A DNA stretch of 64,000 nt from Giardia intestinalis (lineage: Eukaryota): the NCBI GenBank assembly GCA_000002435.2, contig CM018793.1. One strand, 5' to 3'. A program made the translations under genes and the position numbers. This document shows, in pieces, positions 3,341 to 11,452 of this stretch; position 1 is the first letter of the stretch; each line of letters begins with the position of its first letter. The notes under the pieces were generated by a model. The model was given only the letters and a program-made list of their open reading frames with translations, searched no databases and was not told where the DNA came from.

Positions 3341-4795
3341 TCACGAGTAATCGTCGGCGGAGACGAGTAGCCGACAGAGCCCGAGGCATGCGTCACCCTT
3401 TTCGCCTGCTATCCGCTCAAATATCCACGATAGAAGCTCTGTCTCCCGGTCCCACGTCGTGCAGGAGTTGTCTGTCCACGCTGTTTTAGACTTATATATG
3501 TCGTTAAAGTGTGGTGGTATGTCCAACAACGTAATGTCTCTGAGCATATCTACATCTTGAAATGAGTATGTTAGGCGTACGATAGAAACCAACTGACTTG
3601 CAACGGTACTATCATGGTCCACCAGGAGCACGAGCTGTGAGAAAATGTGTGACAGAATTGGATCTGAGTTGTACTTGAATGCAGACGACGCACTCTCTGG
3701 TATATCGCCTGTCATCCGCCTGCCTGTGGAATATGTGGGGGAGGCCCCGCCTTGGCGAATACTCTGTATAGCGTTGTTTTCTGCCTCTACTCCTTGCTTA
3801 ATGTAAATATTTATCTTGCTCGTATTGCTAAATATATCTGCCTCGGAAATGGCTTGATCTGAAATACTCTTAGAAAGCCTAGATGCAAATGCATTCCCTA
3901 CTGCTGCTGTGGGAGGATCAAATGACTCTGGATGAGGTAGGTTAAGCTCGAAAATAAATGGTGCAATCAGATCATGCCCACAAAGCTGGGCAGCAGTCAT
4001 CCGCTGATCTGGGACCTGATTCAATAGGTTTAGACAGATATCTCGCAGCTTGGACGAGTATATTCCGGGCAGCTCGGGAACCTTACCGGAAACGATCTTC
4101 ATTATGAGGGTGTTAATGTTCTTGGCTTGAAACGCTGTTTTAAGGCAGAGTATCTCGAAGATCATGCACCCAAGTGACCACATATCAGACTGTGAATTGT
4201 AGGAAGTCCCCTGAATCAGCTCTGGAGACATATAGAGGGGAGAGCCTATGAATGTGGAGGCCATTGAGCCGGGGTTTATCGTGCGTGCTATTCCAAAGTC
4301 ACCTATATGCACATTGAGATCCTGATCAAGGAAGATGTTTTGAGACTTCAGGTCTCTGTGAATAAGCCCTTTGCTATGAATGTACCAGAGAGCAGATGCA
4401 AGCTGAGCAATCCACCGTAAGACCTGCGACTCCTCAAAGTGCATTTGGCTCTTGTGATGCCTCTTGATCAGTGAAGTGAGCTCCCCATGTTCGCAGTATG
4501 TCATCGCAATATACAGAAAGCCGTCCTCCTTAAAGGACTCTATGCCACGAACAATATTAGGATGGTCCATGGTCAGTAGGATAGCAGATTCTCGCTCTGT
4601 GTTCCGGACCTCTGTGTCCTGCATATCTTCCATACTAATCTCCTTTATCACAACGTGTAAGCCTGTGCGCTTATCACAGCAGAGGAAGCATTCCCCAAAG
4701 GAACCCTCCCCTATCTTTCTAATAACGGTGTAATGCTCCATGAGAGAATTTACCTTTGAATTGCCCTTCCTATTTTTTGCCCGCTTTGCTCCCAC
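3341..4795 (-). CDS. NEK-family Ser/Thr protein kinase, catalytically competent. The true start may be the internal Met at 4741 (MEHYTVIRKIGEG).
   Basis: Gly-loop IGEGSFGE, VIKEI lysine, HRDLKSQNIFL catalytic loop, DFGIAR, SPE/MSPELI APE-like motif and DMWSLGC subdomain IX. C-terminal ~200 aa non-kinase tail. The first ATG at 4795 would overlap the NOG2 stop by 26 nt. Confidence 0.9.
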   Translation of the reverse strand: MGAKRAKNRKGNSKVNSLMEHYTVIRKIGEGSFGECFLCCDKRTGLHVVIKEISMEDMQDTEVRNTERESAILLTMDHPNIVRGIESFKEDGFLYIAMTYCEHGELTSLIKRHHKSQMHFEESQVLRWIAQLASALWYIHSKGLIHRDLKSQNIFLDQDLNVHIGDFGIARTINPGSMASTFIGSPLYMSPELIQGTSYNSQSDMWSLGCMIFEILCLKTAFQAKNINTLIMKIVSGKVPELPGIYSSKLRDICLNLLNQVPDQRMTAAQLCGHDLIAPFIFELNLPHPESFDPPTAAVGNAFASRLSKSISDQAISEADIFSNTSKINIYIKQGVEAENNAIQSIRQGGASPTYSTGRRMTGDIPESASSAFKYNSDPILSHIFSQLVLLVDHDSTVASQLVSIVRLTYSFQDVDMLRDITLLDIPPHFNDIYKSKTAWTDNSCTTWDRETELLSWIFERIAGEKGDACLGLCRLLVSADDYS

Positions 4796-6983
4796 TGCGT
4801 GCCCTCACATTGGCGTAGAATTGGCTCCCAGTCTTTCCATGATCGTACCCGCCCCTGTTGCGTTTGGGAGTCTTCTGCTTTTTATAGGCTCCGGAGACCA
4901 TGATGAGGTCGTCATCACCGACAACCCCAGACAAGTATGCCCTTGTGAGCTCGCGATTCTTAGTCCTCAATAGCTTAACAGCCCTCTTTATTCCCTCGCT
5001 TGTCCCGTGGTGCTTCTTGGGCTTTGTCTTGGTATTGACAACTTCCTTTGCTTGAGCAGCTGCTACCCGCTCACCTACTGTCATTGACTTTTCAGCAGTA
5101 GTACTAGATAGCTTCTTCTTCTTAGATGCGGCTTGAGCCGGCGTGTCTCCTTGTCCAAAGACACTGTCCCAATCATCTGCCAGTCCTGTCTCTCCATCAG
5201 GGGCGGCGTCGCTCAGGTTAACCTCGTTGCTCTCAGAGTTGTTATCTATCTCAGCAACATCTCGGACGGGGCGTGATGTACCGTGGACCTCCTCCTCTTC
5301 AGACTCGGAAACCTCCTCCAATCGGTTATTGATCGCAAATGCATCGTGGACAATTTCCTCCTCATTGAAGTTGAGAGTCTTAGGAAGGAGCATTAGGTCC
5401 TGCGTATTTACGTAGTTTATGAGCTCCACATCTGTCTTGTTTCCCCACGCCTTACGCTCCTTTCCAATCGTGGCATTGTACTCATCAACCTCTTCTCGCG
5501 TGTAGGGTATAACAAAGTGTGGTATCCGTCCTCTGATAAAGTCCTCAAGGATTCTCCTTGCCACAGTTCGTGTATCTGGCTCTCCTCCCTTTAGAAGTCG
5601 GCCCTGTTTGAAAGCAAGGATTTCCAGTAGCTTGTCTACGTCTCCGTCCCACCGCTCATCCACGTTAGAAGCAGGGCGAATATTATATGTCTTGTTGATG
5701 TACTCCGGCTTCACACGCTGAAGTATGCAAGGAATAAACTTCTCCGGGAATTCCAAATACTCTGCGCGTAGAACCCCCGAAAGGACGAGGTGTATGTCTG
5801 TAGTATTTATATAGTTAAAATCGTCGATAGCTGAGCGCGCAGCGGTCGCTCGCCCTTGCGAAAGGTCAGTTCCTGTGTCATAAAGATTGCGCAGCTCATT
5901 CGGAAGCTCCAGTTGATTAGTAGCCCAAACGACACCCGGGGCATCAATGAGATTTATTCGCTTGGTCAAAGATACATATTGCCAGACCTTCGTCTCGCCT
6001 GGAATTGGCGCAGTCTTACAACTATGCTTCCCTAGCAAAGTATTTATAACAGATGACTTCCCAGTGTTCGGGTATCCGCAGAAGCCAACGGATATCTGTG
6101 CTTTGTCCCTATGTAGCTGAGCAAACTGGCGTAGAATAGAAAATACCTCATTGCGGCCGAACGGATGCTCAATGGATGCGTGGAAGGCAATTGTAGGTCT
6201 AAGCTTTGATAGTTTCGATATCCACGATGCAGTAACCCACGTTGGGACCAAATCGCACTTATTAAGCAAGTATATCATGTGCCTGTGCTCGTTCTCTGGT
6301 GTCATCATGTACCTCTCTAAAAATCTGGAGCGCGTGCCTTCTGGGTCCCGCGCATCCAGGACGTAGATGATGACATCTGAACTATCAATTACTTTGTATA
6401 TTTCAGAATAAATCCTATTTGTCTGACCTCTAATTAGTCGCGGATCGTACTCTGTCCTAAAGGCCGTCTTACGGAGCTCCCGTTGGCTCACCGTATTACC
6501 GTCTTTATCAATATCGTAGTTAGTTACTTCACTGTGTGCCGTGGACAGTATTTCTTCCGGGTTGAACGTGGTCAGTTTGCTCCTTTTCCGCTGAGCCTTT
6601 GGCCCAAAAGTGAGATGATAGGGCTCTATCTCCTGGATTCTAACAGTCTCCTGCTTTACATCATGTATAAGGGCGGTCGGTAGACGCTTGTTACGCACCA
6701 GAAATGTGTTTGGATTGTGTTCTTCGTTGGCAATCACCTCTCTCATCTTTGCAAGATCCTGCTGCCCAACGACACGTGTGTTTCCAAACCAATTCCTGGA
6801 TGGTTCAATCCGCCCGTCGAGCTGGGCAGTAGGGTTGTGATACTGTTCGTGGAGAATCTTACCTTTCTCGTCGCGCACAGGTCGAGTGTTATACATCTTC
6901 AGCCGCTTGATTGTCCGATTTGTGCGGATATTGCCCTTCTTGGCGGTCTTGCGGCCTACTATGGATGAAGCCGAGGAAACCAT
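4770..6983 (-). CDS. NOG2: Nucleolar GTP-binding protein 2 (NOG2/GNL2/NGP1), a circularly permuted GTPase involved in 60S ribosome biogenesis.
   Basis: N-terminal NGP1NT-like block (IKRLKMYNTRP..GRIEPSRNWFGNTRVVGQQDL) matches human GNL2 RRLNMYRQK..RVEPNIKWFGNTRVI. GTPase motifs are in permuted order: G4 LLNKCDLV, then G1 GFCGYPNTGKSSVINTL, then G3 IDAPGVV. C-terminal acidic/basic low-complexity tail. Confidence 0.9.
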   Translation of the reverse strand: MVSSASSIVGRKTAKKGNIRTNRTIKRLKMYNTRPVRDEKGKILHEQYHNPTAQLDGRIEPSRNWFGNTRVVGQQDLAKMREVIANEEHNPNTFLVRNKRLPTALIHDVKQETVRIQEIEPYHLTFGPKAQRKRSKLTTFNPEEILSTAHSEVTNYDIDKDGNTVSQRELRKTAFRTEYDPRLIRGQTNRIYSEIYKVIDSSDVIIYVLDARDPEGTRSRFLERYMMTPENEHRHMIYLLNKCDLVPTWVTASWISKLSKLRPTIAFHASIEHPFGRNEVFSILRQFAQLHRDKAQISVGFCGYPNTGKSSVINTLLGKHSCKTAPIPGETKVWQYVSLTKRINLIDAPGVVWATNQLELPNELRNLYDTGTDLSQGRATAARSAIDDFNYINTTDIHLVLSGVLRAEYLEFPEKFIPCILQRVKPEYINKTYNIRPASNVDERWDGDVDKLLEILAFKQGRLLKGGEPDTRTVARRILEDFIRGRIPHFVIPYTREEVDEYNATIGKERKAWGNKTDVELINYVNTQDLMLLPKTLNFNEEEIVHDAFAINNRLEEVSESEEEEVHGTSRPVRDVAEIDNNSESNEVNLSDAAPDGETGLADDWDSVFGQGDTPAQAASKKKKLSSTTAEKSMTVGERVAAAQAKEVVNTKTKPKKHHGTSEGIKRAVKLLRTKNRELTRAYLSGVVGDDDLIMVSGAYKKQKTPKRNRGGYDHGKTGSQFYANVRARSGSKAGKK

Positions 6984-7155
6984 GGAGCCTAAAGAATCTT
7001 TTTACATCGAATCTTATTGCATTCAATCTTCTGTCCGAAGTTATTGCCAATTTAAGTGTAATTTCCATAGTATGTATTTTCAGATATGTAGATTAGCCTT
7101 ACTGTAAAAATAAATATGAACAGTTAATTGTGTTAAAGATCCAGTAAAAAACTCA

Positions 7156-8778
7156 ATGATACTTGCTGTGGCTTCTCTTCTTACAGCGAGTTTAACTAAC
7201 AACATCACGATTGGTGTCCGCGAAGGAAAATATGACGAGTCAACCCCAATACAGTTTGAAGAATTTGTCAATCTCAACTTCTCAACCAATGCACTTTACG
7301 TTCCTTTTCAGTTTAAGCACACAGACTATGCGTACATGCAGGAAGCGCTCCCGATCATACTTAGCCGAGGACGCATCCCCCTATTAATATGGGACATGAG
7401 CAACTCCAAGGAACTAAACAGTGTTTACGAAAGCATCACGGATGGAAGCCAAGATGCTTATTTGAACTCCTTTGCTGATGCAGTTCTGGGTTCATTAGTC
7501 AAGGACACCGTTGTGTATGTGGCCCTGGGAAACGATATCAATACTGAAGACAGCTACTGGCGTAAGAATCCAGAGCTGTATATGCAAACAGTAGACTATG
7601 TCGCAAACAAGCTTCGCATCCGTACAAGGCTTGCGCAAGCTGCTCATGCAACAGAGCACTACCCTACGTATGAGTTCGTATTGCCTCTGGCCGTGAACTA
7701 TAAGCTTTTGCCCTCTAGCTTCGTTCCTAATGCCACGGCATATAACTATTCGCTTGTCACTGTTAGCAACTTTGGAGAGCCGGAGTGGAGCGACGCGTTG
7801 GATCTTATGATCAAGGTAGACAGTATGCTGCAGCAGAGTGAAGACGTCTTGGCCACAAAAGTCTTCATTATAGCGCGCACTGTAAGTGACAACGATACAG
7901 CAAAGAAGGCCGATTGGATAAGCGACCTAGTGGACGCGACCGTTGAGCGATGCCTGCGTATCCCTGTCCTCATCCTAGATAACGTAGAAACAGGAAAGGA
8001 TACAGGTTACTTCATGTCGGTGAATGGCGACAAGGTTGTAGGCCAGAATTCTAATGGAAAGGACCTGTTCTCTTATTGTCGCCTTCCGGACATTTTAGCT
8101 CGTGACGGAATCCACTCCTGGGTACCAGAAGAAGTAGATTCTCCTGTAGATCCACCGGTGGAGCCTAGTGATTGCAAAGCCGGTGAGCAACTAACTGATG
8201 ACGGAGTTTGCGAACCCTGCCCTGCCGGAACTGCATCCAAAGCGGGGTCAGTATGTACTCCATGTACACCAGGAACATATCAACCCAACTCAGGGTCTGG
8301 TACTTGCATCAATTGCTCTGCTGGTCAGTATCAGGATAGCTCAGGGAAGACATCATGCTTAGCTTGTTCCGTGGGCAGTTACCAAGGACTCCAAGGCGCT
8401 GAGACCTGCATCCTATGTCCACACGGACAATATCAACCAAGTCAGGGCCAAGTTGCCTGCATTCGATGTCCCGGTGAGACGACCACAGACAAGGTAGGAG
8501 CCACCTCAAGGGAGTCTTGTGTTTGTGCAGGAACCGTGGGATTTAATGAGACTTCTGGTAAGTGTGAGGTTTGCCCCAGTGGTCAGTACAAACCGCTGCT
8601 TAGTAACATATGTACAGATTGTCCAGTTCCTGATTGCAAGTGTGACAACGGAGGAACCTTCAATACTCTTACAGGACAGTGCGAAAACAACACATCCAGC
8701 AGCTTCACTAGGACTTCAGCAGCAATCTTTGTAGCAACCATTGGTGCCATTTGTGCCATTGCAGCCATTTATAGCTAG
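7156..8778 (+). CDS. Secreted or type-I membrane cysteine-rich protein. Signal peptide, a ~330-aa Cys-poor N-terminal domain of unknown function, then ~200 aa of tandem CxxC furin/TNFR-like repeats and a C-terminal TM helix. It lacks the VSP CRGKA tail.
   Basis: N-terminal MILAVASLLTASLTNN hydrophobic leader. C-terminal repeats CEPCPAGTASKAGSVCTPCTPGTYQP / CINCSAGQYQD / CLACSVGSYQG / CILCPHGQYQP / CIRCPGETT. Terminal hydrophobic AAIFVATIGAICAIAAIYS. Confidence 0.75.
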   Translation: MILAVASLLTASLTNNITIGVREGKYDESTPIQFEEFVNLNFSTNALYVPFQFKHTDYAYMQEALPIILSRGRIPLLIWDMSNSKELNSVYESITDGSQDAYLNSFADAVLGSLVKDTVVYVALGNDINTEDSYWRKNPELYMQTVDYVANKLRIRTRLAQAAHATEHYPTYEFVLPLAVNYKLLPSSFVPNATAYNYSLVTVSNFGEPEWSDALDLMIKVDSMLQQSEDVLATKVFIIARTVSDNDTAKKADWISDLVDATVERCLRIPVLILDNVETGKDTGYFMSVNGDKVVGQNSNGKDLFSYCRLPDILARDGIHSWVPEEVDSPVDPPVEPSDCKAGEQLTDDGVCEPCPAGTASKAGSVCTPCTPGTYQPNSGSGTCINCSAGQYQDSSGKTSCLACSVGSYQGLQGAETCILCPHGQYQPSQGQVACIRCPGETTTDKVGATSRESCVCAGTVGFNETSGKCEVCPSGQYKPLLSNICTDCPVPDCKCDNGGTFNTLTGQCENNTSSSFTRTSAAIFVATIGAICAIAAIYS

Positions 8779-8791
8779 GTATTTACAAATC

Positions 8792-11452
8792 TTACAAGTT
8801 GTTTGAGTGGACATGTCCTTGTATAACCTCAATAATTCGTTCGGAAAGATTGACATCTTTGTAGACAGAGCCATCAGTTGCATAGTAAATGGCCGAGCGA
8901 CCACGCTGATCTAAAATATGCGCTTCCAAGGGTGAAAGTTCCTGAACAATACGCAAATACCCTAGCTGCGCTGCCATCATCAAAGCTGTGTGCCCTTTGG
9001 ACGTCTGTGCCCCTGCTTCATAAGGTAGCAATACTCGAACAATATCTAGTTGGTCTAGTTCGGCAGCCACCATGAGTGCGGTGCGTCCATTCTGGTCGCG
9101 AATGTTGGAGAGCCGGGGAGCGAGTAAATATACAGCGGCTAGATTGTTCATGGGTACAAATCCATGAAGTGTGGCTCCACGGTTGCATTGGTCATGGAGT
9201 ACATTGGATACTCGCACCAACTTTGATCGCAAATACTCAGACAAGTGATAATTTCTGGCCTGAATGGTCACTTCGAGAACCTCGAGCCAGATTCCATCGG
9301 CGTCTTCATGTAGAATGTCATGCCGCAGACACGCTTTAGAAAATAACTCGCGAAGCAAGGTCTCTTCACATGGAATAATAGAATTCAGTTTTCGCTGTGT
9401 CACAAAGCTAACAATATACGGGTTGTCAGCCGACTCCTTGCTTTCCTCGATATCCCTAAGAACTTTATCGCGTTCACAAAGAGCTCGCTGATATAAAATG
9501 CATGCCACTCTCTCCATATTGCCAACCCCCTCTTTCCGATGGTCACTGATAACATCGCAATCGGCTAGAGGAATTTGTGCAAGGCATTGATTTAGCTCAG
9601 CAATGGCCTTATCCTTTTCTAGTAGTTCTTCTGTTAGCCGAGCTATTAGTGTCTGGGCCTCAGCAAGTGAACCTTCAAGTTCTGCTCCTGGTTGTGATTG
9701 TGATTGTGGTTGTGGTTGTGGTTGCAATGCTTGGATCTCTTCAGTGCGAGCATTTGATGGCTCAGCTTGACGCTCGAGTTGATGAAAGTTGGCCACACTG
9801 AACTCAGAAGGGTATAGAACGGAAGCGCCTGGTTGTTGAAGGGCTTCTTGCAAGAGAATGCTCAGGCGTGTGGGGTCCACCACTCGTAAATGCACACCAG
9901 GACCAACACACTCCACCTGCACGCCGTGGTCAGCTAACTGTTCTATCAGTTTGGTCAGGCTACAGGCATCATCGTCTGCTGCAGCCTTTTTGCCTTCCTC
10001 TTCTTCTAAATAGCTGTATATGGTCATTGTATCGATCATTCTTGTTTCTACATCATTGTGAGCTGCTAAAGGGATTAAGTCTGAGGTGCAACATTCAATG
10101 GAAGGTTCTTGAACATCCTGAGGATGTGTAGGGTCAGTCTGCTTAGTATCGCTCTCTGCAGCTGTTTGTCGTAGTAAAGTAATACTTTGTTTGAGCTGCT
10201 GCAACTCCGTGTTCAGGGCGTCCCGCTCATTCTGAACGACTGAAAGCCTATCGCGTATCGCTTCTGCTTCCGCTATGGCATCAAGACATGATCTTCTTAA
10301 TGTTTGTATTTCTGTACTAGCAATCTCCGTCAGTACGGAGACCTTAGCAAAGTTTTGCGAGATTATGGAAGACTCTAGGCCCAATGTCAGCAAATTAGAC
10401 TTTAGTATTGAATACTCTGAAAGCATCTGCTTGCAAATTGATTCAGCGTCGGCAGAAGCAGCAAGATTATCCTTAATCTGCGCCTCCTCAGACATATTTG
10501 GAGTCTCCACAGCGTTTGAAGTTAGTGTTAAGGATATAGGATGTACCATCTGGCCGGATGCTTGAGTAGCTGCGGTCAATTCTGTTGTGAGCCGTGCTAT
10601 TTCTTCTTCCTTTTCACACAGTTGTTTTTCCTGGGTCTTCAGCTGTTCAGTAAGGCTGCGGAGCTTTGTGTCCATAGTTTCATAGCTCTGTTTCTCGTTA
10701 CTCAGTATACTAGAAATAATGTCCTGATATTTTCTAGATTGAGATTGCTCTTTCAAGAGCTCTGCTTGAAGTGCTTTAACGGCCTCCTGTAGCATCGATT
10801 TGGTAGCCCGCGCCATCCACTCCTCCGTTAGCGTATGCGTACCCATACCAGAAGTTGCCGTAGCAATGGATTCACCGGTCTTTTTGTCCAAAGCAGAAGC
10901 AGATCCTGTTTGTACTTGTTCGGATTGATCTGCTAAGGACTCCGGCTGAATGGCTCTTGCAGACTGCTTCCGGTGTGCAAGCATCTCTACTATACGATTG
11001 TACTGAGCTGAGGTGGGTGAATGCACCGACTGAAGTACCTTCTCAACGTGTTCAGAACCAAGCTCCTCATCCCGCAGAAGAAGTTCCACTATGGAATATG
11101 CACTGGCTTCAATGGCTCTTTCCATCATGTCGACTTTCGATACTATCTGGGCAGATAGCAAATGTGGACACAGCAGGGCAAAGATATCAGCCTCATCGTT
11201 CCGCAGACATGCTTTCATGCCTTGAGTAAGTGAAGTCAGTATGGCAGTTCGCTTCTTCTCGTCACAGGCGGTCCGAAGAGTGTTGGCATAAAGATTGCAG
11301 ATTGCCGCTATGGCTTCTTTATTCGCATATAGCACTGCAATAGTTAAACTAGAATTGGTACCCTCATCCACTGCCAGAAAGTACTCCTCAAGGTGAGCCA
11401 TCACGTAGGTATTGTCTGCCCGCTTCAGCGCCGAGAACCATTGGTCACTCAT
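8792..11452 (-). CDS. Ankyrin-repeat plus coiled-coil protein (21.1-like), 886 aa, with an internal (PQ/SQ)n low-complexity linker.
   Basis: GRTALMVAAELDQLDIVRVLLPYEAG..GHTALMMAAQLGYLRIVQELSPLEA ankyrin motifs near the N-terminus. Long E/L/Q-rich coiled coil. QPQPQPQSQSQP encoded by a hexamer microsatellite. Confidence 0.8.
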   Translation of the reverse strand: MSDQWFSALKRADNTYVMAHLEEYFLAVDEGTNSSLTIAVLYANKEAIAAICNLYANTLRTACDEKKRTAILTSLTQGMKACLRNDEADIFALLCPHLLSAQIVSKVDMMERAIEASAYSIVELLLRDEELGSEHVEKVLQSVHSPTSAQYNRIVEMLAHRKQSARAIQPESLADQSEQVQTGSASALDKKTGESIATATSGMGTHTLTEEWMARATKSMLQEAVKALQAELLKEQSQSRKYQDIISSILSNEKQSYETMDTKLRSLTEQLKTQEKQLCEKEEEIARLTTELTAATQASGQMVHPISLTLTSNAVETPNMSEEAQIKDNLAASADAESICKQMLSEYSILKSNLLTLGLESSIISQNFAKVSVLTEIASTEIQTLRRSCLDAIAEAEAIRDRLSVVQNERDALNTELQQLKQSITLLRQTAAESDTKQTDPTHPQDVQEPSIECCTSDLIPLAAHNDVETRMIDTMTIYSYLEEEEGKKAAADDDACSLTKLIEQLADHGVQVECVGPGVHLRVVDPTRLSILLQEALQQPGASVLYPSEFSVANFHQLERQAEPSNARTEEIQALQPQPQPQSQSQPGAELEGSLAEAQTLIARLTEELLEKDKAIAELNQCLAQIPLADCDVISDHRKEGVGNMERVACILYQRALCERDKVLRDIEESKESADNPYIVSFVTQRKLNSIIPCEETLLRELFSKACLRHDILHEDADGIWLEVLEVTIQARNYHLSEYLRSKLVRVSNVLHDQCNRGATLHGFVPMNNLAAVYLLAPRLSNIRDQNGRTALMVAAELDQLDIVRVLLPYEAGAQTSKGHTALMMAAQLGYLRIVQELSPLEAHILDQRGRSAIYYATDGSVYKDVNLSERIIEVIQGHVHSNNL
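9688..9725. repeat. Coding hexanucleotide microsatellite (GTTGTG/GATTGT)n, ~6 units, encoding (PQ/SQ)n on the minus strand.
   Basis: ggttgtgattgtgattgtggttgtggttgtggttg read directly at 9689-9724. Confidence 0.8.

Follow-up and report, generated by a model that had tools for sequence, protein, structure and literature searches.

CEGP1 of Giardia intestinalis carries a GH26-like head that lacks the catalytic nucleophile, set on an Ephrin_rec_like stalk

Members of glycoside hydrolase (GH) family GH26 act as mannanases, beta-1,3-xylanases and lichenases. Glycosidase folds that serve as lectins or receptors, such as YKL-40, Klotho/beta-Klotho and XIP-I, come from families other than GH26 (GH18, GH1), and membrane- or GPI-anchored wall remodellers (plant KORRIGAN of GH9, fungal Gas/Gel of GH72 and Crh of GH16, and bacterial BcsZ/PslG) sit at the outer membrane face and are induced together with synthesis of the wall polymer. 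GCC2/GCC3 repeats occur in SCUBE2 (also called CEGP1), ELAPOR1, the cysteine-rich domain (CRD) of Eph receptors and the Chlamydomonas mastigoneme protein Mst1. In Giardia, a homopolymer of N-acetylgalactosamine (GalNAc) in beta-1,3 linkage makes up ~63% of the cyst-wall filament material (PMC13315228), and the polymer synthase and a cyst-specific glycohydrolase have been described as activities only, without genes, in a 2010 study (PMC2924369) and a 2026 review (PMC13315228). Here, we analysed the CEGP1 gene of Giardia intestinalis, GL50803_17120, which lies complete (ATG to TAG, 540 codons plus stop) on the plus strand at 7156..8778 of a 64,000-nucleotide stretch of contig CM018793.1 (assembly GCA_000002435.2), hereafter the window. 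The encoded protein exactly matches XP_001709353.1 / UniProt A8B610, 'CEGP1 protein' of strain WB clone C6, and the gene is listed at CH991768:993964-995587 with a span of 1,624 bp (Einarsson et al. 2016 S1 Table, PMC4807828). The annotation of CEGP1 and its induction in encystation were already known; what the present analysis adds is that its Ephrin_rec_like stalk carries a head of the GH26 type without the nucleophile. The database name reflects the stalk only, because it stems from the C-terminal Ephrin_rec_like (GCC2/GCC3) repeats. Our literature search found no paper tying any Giardia protein to GH26, and none on the missing nucleophile or on a diplomonad-wide CEGP1 family.

An exhaustive phmmer search of 1.84 billion representatives for relatives of the N-terminal domain returned only six: the Giardia CEGP1 group, CEGP1 of G. 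muris (44% identity) and a further paralogue from that species named 'ephrin-receptor like' (23%), the Logan proteins P0007 (30%) and P0009 (24%), and proteins of Hexamita inflata (26%). Word-indexed homologue searches gave nothing beyond proteins of Giardia and a single one of Hexamita. In Pfam and NCBIfam, neither aa 1-340 nor any of the six divergent family members matched a GH family, PF02156 included, at a cut-off as loose as E<=10, and a single-sequence phmmer search against the PDB gave matches confined to the Cys-rich repeats, with none for the head. A profile built from the six family N-terminal domains (A2) matched the lichenase CtLic26A (2cip/2bv9/2v3g), which is the GH26 domain of Clostridium thermocellum endoglucanase H, at E=7e-7 in hmmsearch (profile 25-275, chain 20-263), and hhalign aligned the family profile to CtLic26A with 94.2% probability and E=1e-7. 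CtLic26A is the closest solved GH26 member, at an identity of ~12%. A shallow profile of the paralogue clade alone gave a best GH26 match to 2whk that was not significant (E=0.83); this clade retains a GH26 signature, YFPGESYVDW, which corresponds to HYPGDNYVDY in CtLic26A.

Fold prediction agreed with the profile matches. The AlphaFold2 (AF2) model of aa 1-335, made from a 12-sequence alignment, showed eight alternating strands and helices at a predicted local distance difference test (pLDDT) score of 72 and a predicted template modelling (pTM) score of 0.77. In Foldseek, the matches listed at the top for this model were all glycoside-hydrolase-type barrels, mostly of clan GH-A families, with PslG first. 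The head of CEGP1 (aa 16-325, 7201..8130, plus strand), which is nearly Cys-free, is therefore a divergent GH26-type (beta/alpha)8 barrel of clan GH-A, nearest to GH26 structures, as judged from the family profile, hhalign, AF2 and Foldseek. A first-pass annotation of the window had guessed at a TIM-barrel glycoside hydrolase from the motifs IPLLIWDMSN and VALGNDINTE. Both motifs are present (aa 74-83 and aa 122-131, respectively), and the guess proved right, with GH26 being one of the three families it had named.

The catalytic glutamates of CtLic26A can be read from mutant PDB entries as E109 (to Ala; in PLHEANGDW) and E222 (to Gln; in IIAEFAS). In hmmsearch, hhalign and three MAFFT modes alike, the nucleophile Glu222 falls on Arg241 of CEGP1 (codon 7876..7878, plus strand; IIARTVS against IIAEFAS). 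The residue at this position is Arg in CEGP1 of G. intestinalis and G. muris, Ser in P0007 and Gly in the paralogues and Hexamita, so that a Glu ending strand beta7 is found in none of the 12 family sequences. Since the nucleophile is absent from every family member, the classical GH26 retaining mechanism is unavailable to any of them.

The acid/base side of the active site was less straightforward to align. The glutamate E109 of CtLic26A was left unpaired by hmmsearch, hhalign and MAFFT, which treated LHEANGDWYPW as an insertion. In both AF2 models, strand beta4 comprises residues 119-124 and is followed by G125-N126-D127, and a 26-aa insertion in P0009 lies directly before beta4, as expected of an alpha3-beta4 loop. 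We infer from the models that N126/D127 (7531..7536, plus strand), at the C-terminal end of beta4, where topology places the acid/base of GH26 enzymes (in CtLic26A, His-Glu), are probably the structural equivalents of H108/E109, and N129 that of N111. Position 127 is D, D and E in the CEGP1 clade and T, T and Q in the paralogue clade; position 132 is D, D and E in the former and N, Y and Q in the latter. In either alignment of beta4, the H108 position is without His in every family member, and the His-Glu pair that ends beta4 in GH26 is missing. The acid/base of CEGP1 is therefore at best an Asp (D127), in the CEGP1 clade only. In addition, the beta8 Trp of CtLic26A (W255) falls at L274 in the hmmsearch alignment.

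Against these losses, 15 residues are invariant in the family: W79, D100, G125, N129, Y134, S244, K251, N276, E278, D282, S288, G291, G301, L304 and Y307. Among them, E278 pairs with E261 of CtLic26A in hmmsearch and MAFFT. The last eight of these positions fall within a segment that follows beta8 and is specific to the family (aa 274-312, 7975..8091, plus strand; LDNVETGKDTGYFMSVNGDKVVGQNSNGKDLFSYCRLPD), the most conserved part of the protein, and this long conserved loop, together with the eukaryotic Cys-rich stalk and the membrane anchor, sets the CEGP1 family apart from GH26. Within it, aa 279-309 (nt 7990-8082; TGKDTGYF...NGD...NG..L.SY) were modelled worst by AF2, with pLDDT <50 in both runs; its folding in silico may depend on a ligand, on a partner or on a deeper alignment.

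Judged from these residues, a classical surface-anchored hydrolase is unlikely, and the GH26-derived head is more likely to be non-catalytic or non-canonical. The first-pass annotation had proposed a surface-anchored enzyme or a lectin: the fold bears out the carbohydrate-active part of this proposal, the loss of the nucleophile in all members and the unconserved acid/base speak against a classical hydrolase, and either a lectin or an enzyme of a non-canonical kind is the better fit. The main rival to the lectin-like reading favoured below, an active enzyme (a non-canonical glycosidase or transglycosidase) for cutting or remodelling the cyst wall's beta-1,3-GalNAc polymer, is possible but doubtful in our view. 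Such an enzyme could be the 'cyst-specific glycohydrolase', or a trimmer associated with synthesis like KORRIGAN, BcsZ and PslG or the fungal GPI (glycosylphosphatidylinositol)-anchored GH72 and GH16 remodellers. It would use D127 as the general acid/base, with the 2-acetamido group of the substrate or E278 in place of the lost nucleophile. The acidic residues D127 and D132, specific to the CEGP1 clade, and the invariance of E278 would suit this proposal; an N-acetylhexosamine polymer could supply its own nucleophile, and a glycohydrolase activity that is demonstrated in cysts still lacks an assigned gene (PMC2924369, PMC13315228). However, the residue at the nucleophile position is not even conserved (R/S/G), further -1-site residues (the beta8 Trp and the histidine of 'HE') are lost as well, and D127 is not paired with E109 by sequence aligners. 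None of the canonical adjacent catalytic pairs known to us from substrate-assisted families (D-E, D-x-E, N-x-E) occurs at beta4, where the residues read N-D in Giardia, T-D in G. muris and T-E in P0007. We also know of no clan GH-A family with substrate-assisted catalysis, which counts further against an active enzyme, and the anchored wall remodellers, which CEGP1 otherwise resembles in its predicted place at the outer membrane face and in its induction along with wall-polymer synthesis, keep a complete catalytic pair that CEGP1 does not have. The most specific version is improbable: on a GH26 scaffold, by 2-acetamido participation and with D127 as the acid/base, CEGP1 would be the stage-specific enzyme for cleavage or transglycosylation of the beta-1,3-GalNAc homopolymer; if true, its mechanism would be undescribed for clan GH-A and would define a new diplomonad-restricted CAZy (sub)family. 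CEGP1 as the cyst wall synthase itself was rejected, the domain having a luminal or extracellular GH-type fold and not that of a nucleotide-sugar glycosyltransferase.

Behind the head, CEGP1 changes in composition. The protein has 25 Cys in 540 aa (4.6%), of which only C266 and C308 lie before residue 340 (hypergeometric P = 8e-9 for at most 2 of 25 within the first 339 residues), and the other 23 are found between residues 340 and 533, with eight CxxC motifs between 352 and 489. A Pro/Glu/Asp-rich linker with low pLDDT (aa 326-339, 8131..8172, plus strand; EVDSPVDPPVEPSD) leads into a Cys-rich stalk (aa 340-512, 8173..8691, plus strand; 22 Cys), which Pfam resolved into Ephrin_rec_like (GCC2/GCC3) repeats, PF07699 exceeding its gathering score in four stretches (E=5e-27, 93.8 bits, cut-off 23.1), and a TNFR_ELAPOR1_6th-like unit. 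The Cys columns are invariant across the CEGP1 family. In the PDB, the stalk of the single CEGP1 sequence matched Mst1 (E=7e-19), thyroglobulin and the Eph receptor CRD, and AF2 modelled it as beta-hairpin repeats with pLDDT mostly 70-89. The C-terminal 170 aa are like the GCC2/GCC3 proteins in fitting PF07699; only the stalk is shared, and none of SCUBE2, ELAPOR1, Eph receptors and Mst1 has a GH26-like head. The N-terminus is hydrophobic (aa 1-15, 7156..7200, plus strand; MILAVASLLTASLTN), as are the starts of all homologues, and is presumably a signal peptide that would be cleaved. The sole strongly hydrophobic stretch, aa 517-539 (8704..8772, plus strand; helix 516-539 in AF2), is preceded by a Ser run and followed by a single residue, the protein ending in ...AICAIAAIYS without CRGKA. 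Most homologues likewise stop right after this stretch, and P0007 has a ~22-aa tail. The helix may be either a tail-less type-I transmembrane anchor or a GPI-attachment signal, and CEGP1 is predicted to be secreted and membrane-tethered with its head away from the membrane.

The CxxC motifs and the single C-terminal anchor are also what would be expected if CEGP1 were an ordinary member of the variant-specific surface proteins (VSPs) or high-cysteine membrane proteins (HCMPs) with a degenerate, Cys-depleted repeat region, a reading that we regard as scarcely credible. A VSP has a CRGKA tail, ~11-12% Cys and CxxC throughout the ectodomain, and CEGP1 has none of these. HCMPs are reportedly defined, by a criterion said to go back to Davids and colleagues in 2006, by >=10% Cys and many (~20 or more) CxxC along their length, against 4.6% and eight confined to aa 340-512 in CEGP1. 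Moreover, the N-terminal domain has its own fold and homologues, and CEGP1 has one-to-one orthologues across Giardia assemblages (85-92% identity; labelled 'CEGP1 protein' or 'GCC2 family protein') plus one in G. muris, unlike variant antigens. The degenerate HCMP/VSP reading was accordingly rejected on Cys and CxxC content, the GH26 profile match and the fold. In its outline of the protein, the first-pass annotation was accurate: it had described a Cys-poor N-terminal domain of ~330 aa, 'furin/TNFR-like' CxxC repeats (a fair description of four Ephrin_rec_like repeats and TNFR_ELAPOR1_6th), a C-terminal anchor stretch without CRGKA, and a protein that is not VSP- or HCMP-like over its whole length. 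It had also been right in taking Giardia as the organism, as the exact match to XP_001709353.1 / A8B610 confirms. The two findings it had named as fatal to its proposal, a domain without an enzyme-like fold and a degenerate HCMP repeat region, were not what we found.

The combination of head, GCC2/GCC3 stalk and C-terminal hydrophobic anchor is common to all relatives (G. muris, Hexamita inflata, P0007 and P0009). As this architecture is common to G. muris and Hexamita, the fusion is old and diplomonad-wide, and a recent chimera at the CEGP1 locus was rejected. In this respect the first-pass annotation, which had taken the domain as 'unknown' and the protein as a one-off chimera, did not hold, CEGP1 being an annotated gene whose architecture is kept in other diplomonads. 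Two members of the family are found in G. muris (TNJ30175.1 = P0008; TNJ27666.1 = P0006), namely CEGP1 and the 'ephrin-receptor like' paralogue, and the exhaustive search returned no G. intestinalis counterpart of the latter clade, which suggests its loss from, or strong divergence in, the G. intestinalis lineage. P0009 (locus L001) is a GC-rich member from a 2,253-bp contig of Logan run SRR14944320, and the insertion before its beta4 is rich in Ser, Thr, Asp and Pro; used as a query against the protein collection, it returned only itself and no named close relative. The 90% cluster of CEGP1 includes a 55-aa JGI/IMG fragment tagged 'sarcosine oxidase delta subunit', which is almost certainly due to wrong annotation or to an artefact of clustering. 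Among assemblages, the head is more conserved (87-92%) than the stalk (76-86%). On sequence evidence, the barrel and the family-specific beta8 loop are under strong constraint (purifying selection).

Published RNA-seq places CEGP1 in the cyst-wall programme. In vitro, its expression climbed from 10 FPKM (fragments per kilobase of transcript per million mapped reads) in trophozoites through 15 (90 min) and 222 (7 h) to 723 (22 h), an induction of ~70-fold, and stood at 120 in cysts (PMC4807828 S1 Table). In a second time course, CEGP1 was induced at 7 h and its product was termed 'the transglycosidase CEGP1' (Rojas-López et al. 2021, PMC8700996), a label that presumably derives from superfamily-level database annotation. 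The ID is printed there as GL50803_17210, a typo for GL50803_17120 (PMC4807828 S1 Table), and a search with the printed ID found nothing else. In encysting foci of the mouse small intestine, CEGP1 was 28.5-fold up (519 vs 18 FPKM), third among the up-regulated genes behind CWP2 and glucose-6-phosphate N-acetyltransferase and just above UDP-glucose 4-epimerase (PMC5450421 supplements); a table in that study credits its role in encystation to Faso et al. 2013. CEGP1 is thus co-regulated with the cyst-wall programme, and the strong induction in vitro and in vivo fits the cyst-wall role for which the first-pass annotation had suggested looking at expression during encystation. The divergent intergenic region that serves as the promoter (172 bp, 6984..7155, plus strand) contains no exact Myb2 site (CWACAG); two near-matches with 5/6 positions were read directly from the sequence, GAACAG (7119-7124) and, on the minus strand, TTACAG (~7101-7106), and across the window CWACAG occurs at chance frequency. 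An A-rich initiator-like sequence directly precedes the ATG.

We favour, tentatively, the explanation that CEGP1 is a lectin-like pseudo-glycosidase which tethers or organises wall polysaccharide at a membrane or vesicle surface during wall assembly, because several active-site residues are lost together although the barrel and the beta8 loop stay under strong purifying selection; such joint loss is the usual signature of GH pseudo-enzymes. CEGP1 would be a membrane-tethered protein of the secretory pathway, anchored by its terminal hydrophobic helix (transmembrane or GPI signal), in which a rigid stalk of disulphide-bonded GCC2/GCC3 repeats would hold the GH26-derived head off the membrane. 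The gene is nearly silent in trophozoites and is induced alongside the cyst-wall proteins and the enzymes of the UDP-GalNAc pathway. In this reading, the cleft of the head that was once an active site would hold a glycan but not hydrolyse it in the classical way, the ligand most plausibly being nascent beta-1,3-GalNAc cyst-wall fibrils. The binding of glycan, the GalNAc polymer as its ligand and the lack of catalysis are all putative, which distinguishes CEGP1 from the known pseudo-glycosidase lectins and receptors.

In another reading, CEGP1 acts at the surface during encystation as a receptor or a structural protein, and its GH26-like head binds a ligand other than the wall glycan, for example a protein (a cyst wall protein or HCNCp), the N-glycan of a glycoprotein or a sugar linked to a lipid, or simply serves as a folded spacer. 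We rate this as unlikely: conserved polar residues (W79, D80, N129, N276 and E278) lie at the sugar-binding places of GH26, at the C-terminal ends of beta3, beta4 and beta8, and the co-regulation of CEGP1 is tightest with the enzymes of the GalNAc pathway. Several observations nevertheless weigh against a lectin-like pseudo-glycosidase that binds the wall polymer. The acidic D127 and D132 next to beta4, present in the CEGP1 clade and not in the paralogue clade, and the invariant E278 could point to catalysis of a residual or non-canonical kind instead of binding alone. That Hexamita has relatives shows that the family is not tied to the GalNAc wall of Giardia as such. No 17120/CEGP1 entry was found in the available text and supplements of the encystation proteome (Faso et al. 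2013), nor in those of the proteome of encystation-specific vesicles (ESVs) and organelles. Finally, the AF2 model is of moderate confidence only, and it is the most conserved loop that is poorly modelled.

The window is densely packed with genes, without introns and at ~48% GC. Upstream, the 172-bp intergenic region is shared between the strongly stage-regulated CEGP1 and a divergent gene (4770-6983, minus strand) for an NGP1/Nog2-type nucleolar GTPase (NGP1NT + MMR_HSR1). Downstream, a convergent gene for an 886-aa ankyrin/coiled-coil protein of the '21.1' type (8792..11452, minus strand) ends 13 bp (8779-8791) from the CEGP1 stop (8776-8778), and the 3' untranslated regions and polyadenylation signals of the two genes must therefore overlap. 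Neither neighbour, GTPase or ankyrin protein, provides functional context for CEGP1.

The Giardia cyst is the transmission stage, and the beta-1,3-GalNAc polymer of its wall is unique. CEGP1 is among the genes most strongly induced in encystation, and its database name hides a GH26-type carbohydrate-active head. A non-catalytic head would make CEGP1 a GH26 pseudo-enzyme, of which we know no earlier description; a catalytic one would have an unusual mechanism. In either case, CEGP1, which has no counterpart in humans, is a concrete candidate for the binding or remodelling of wall glycan at the surface of the parasite.
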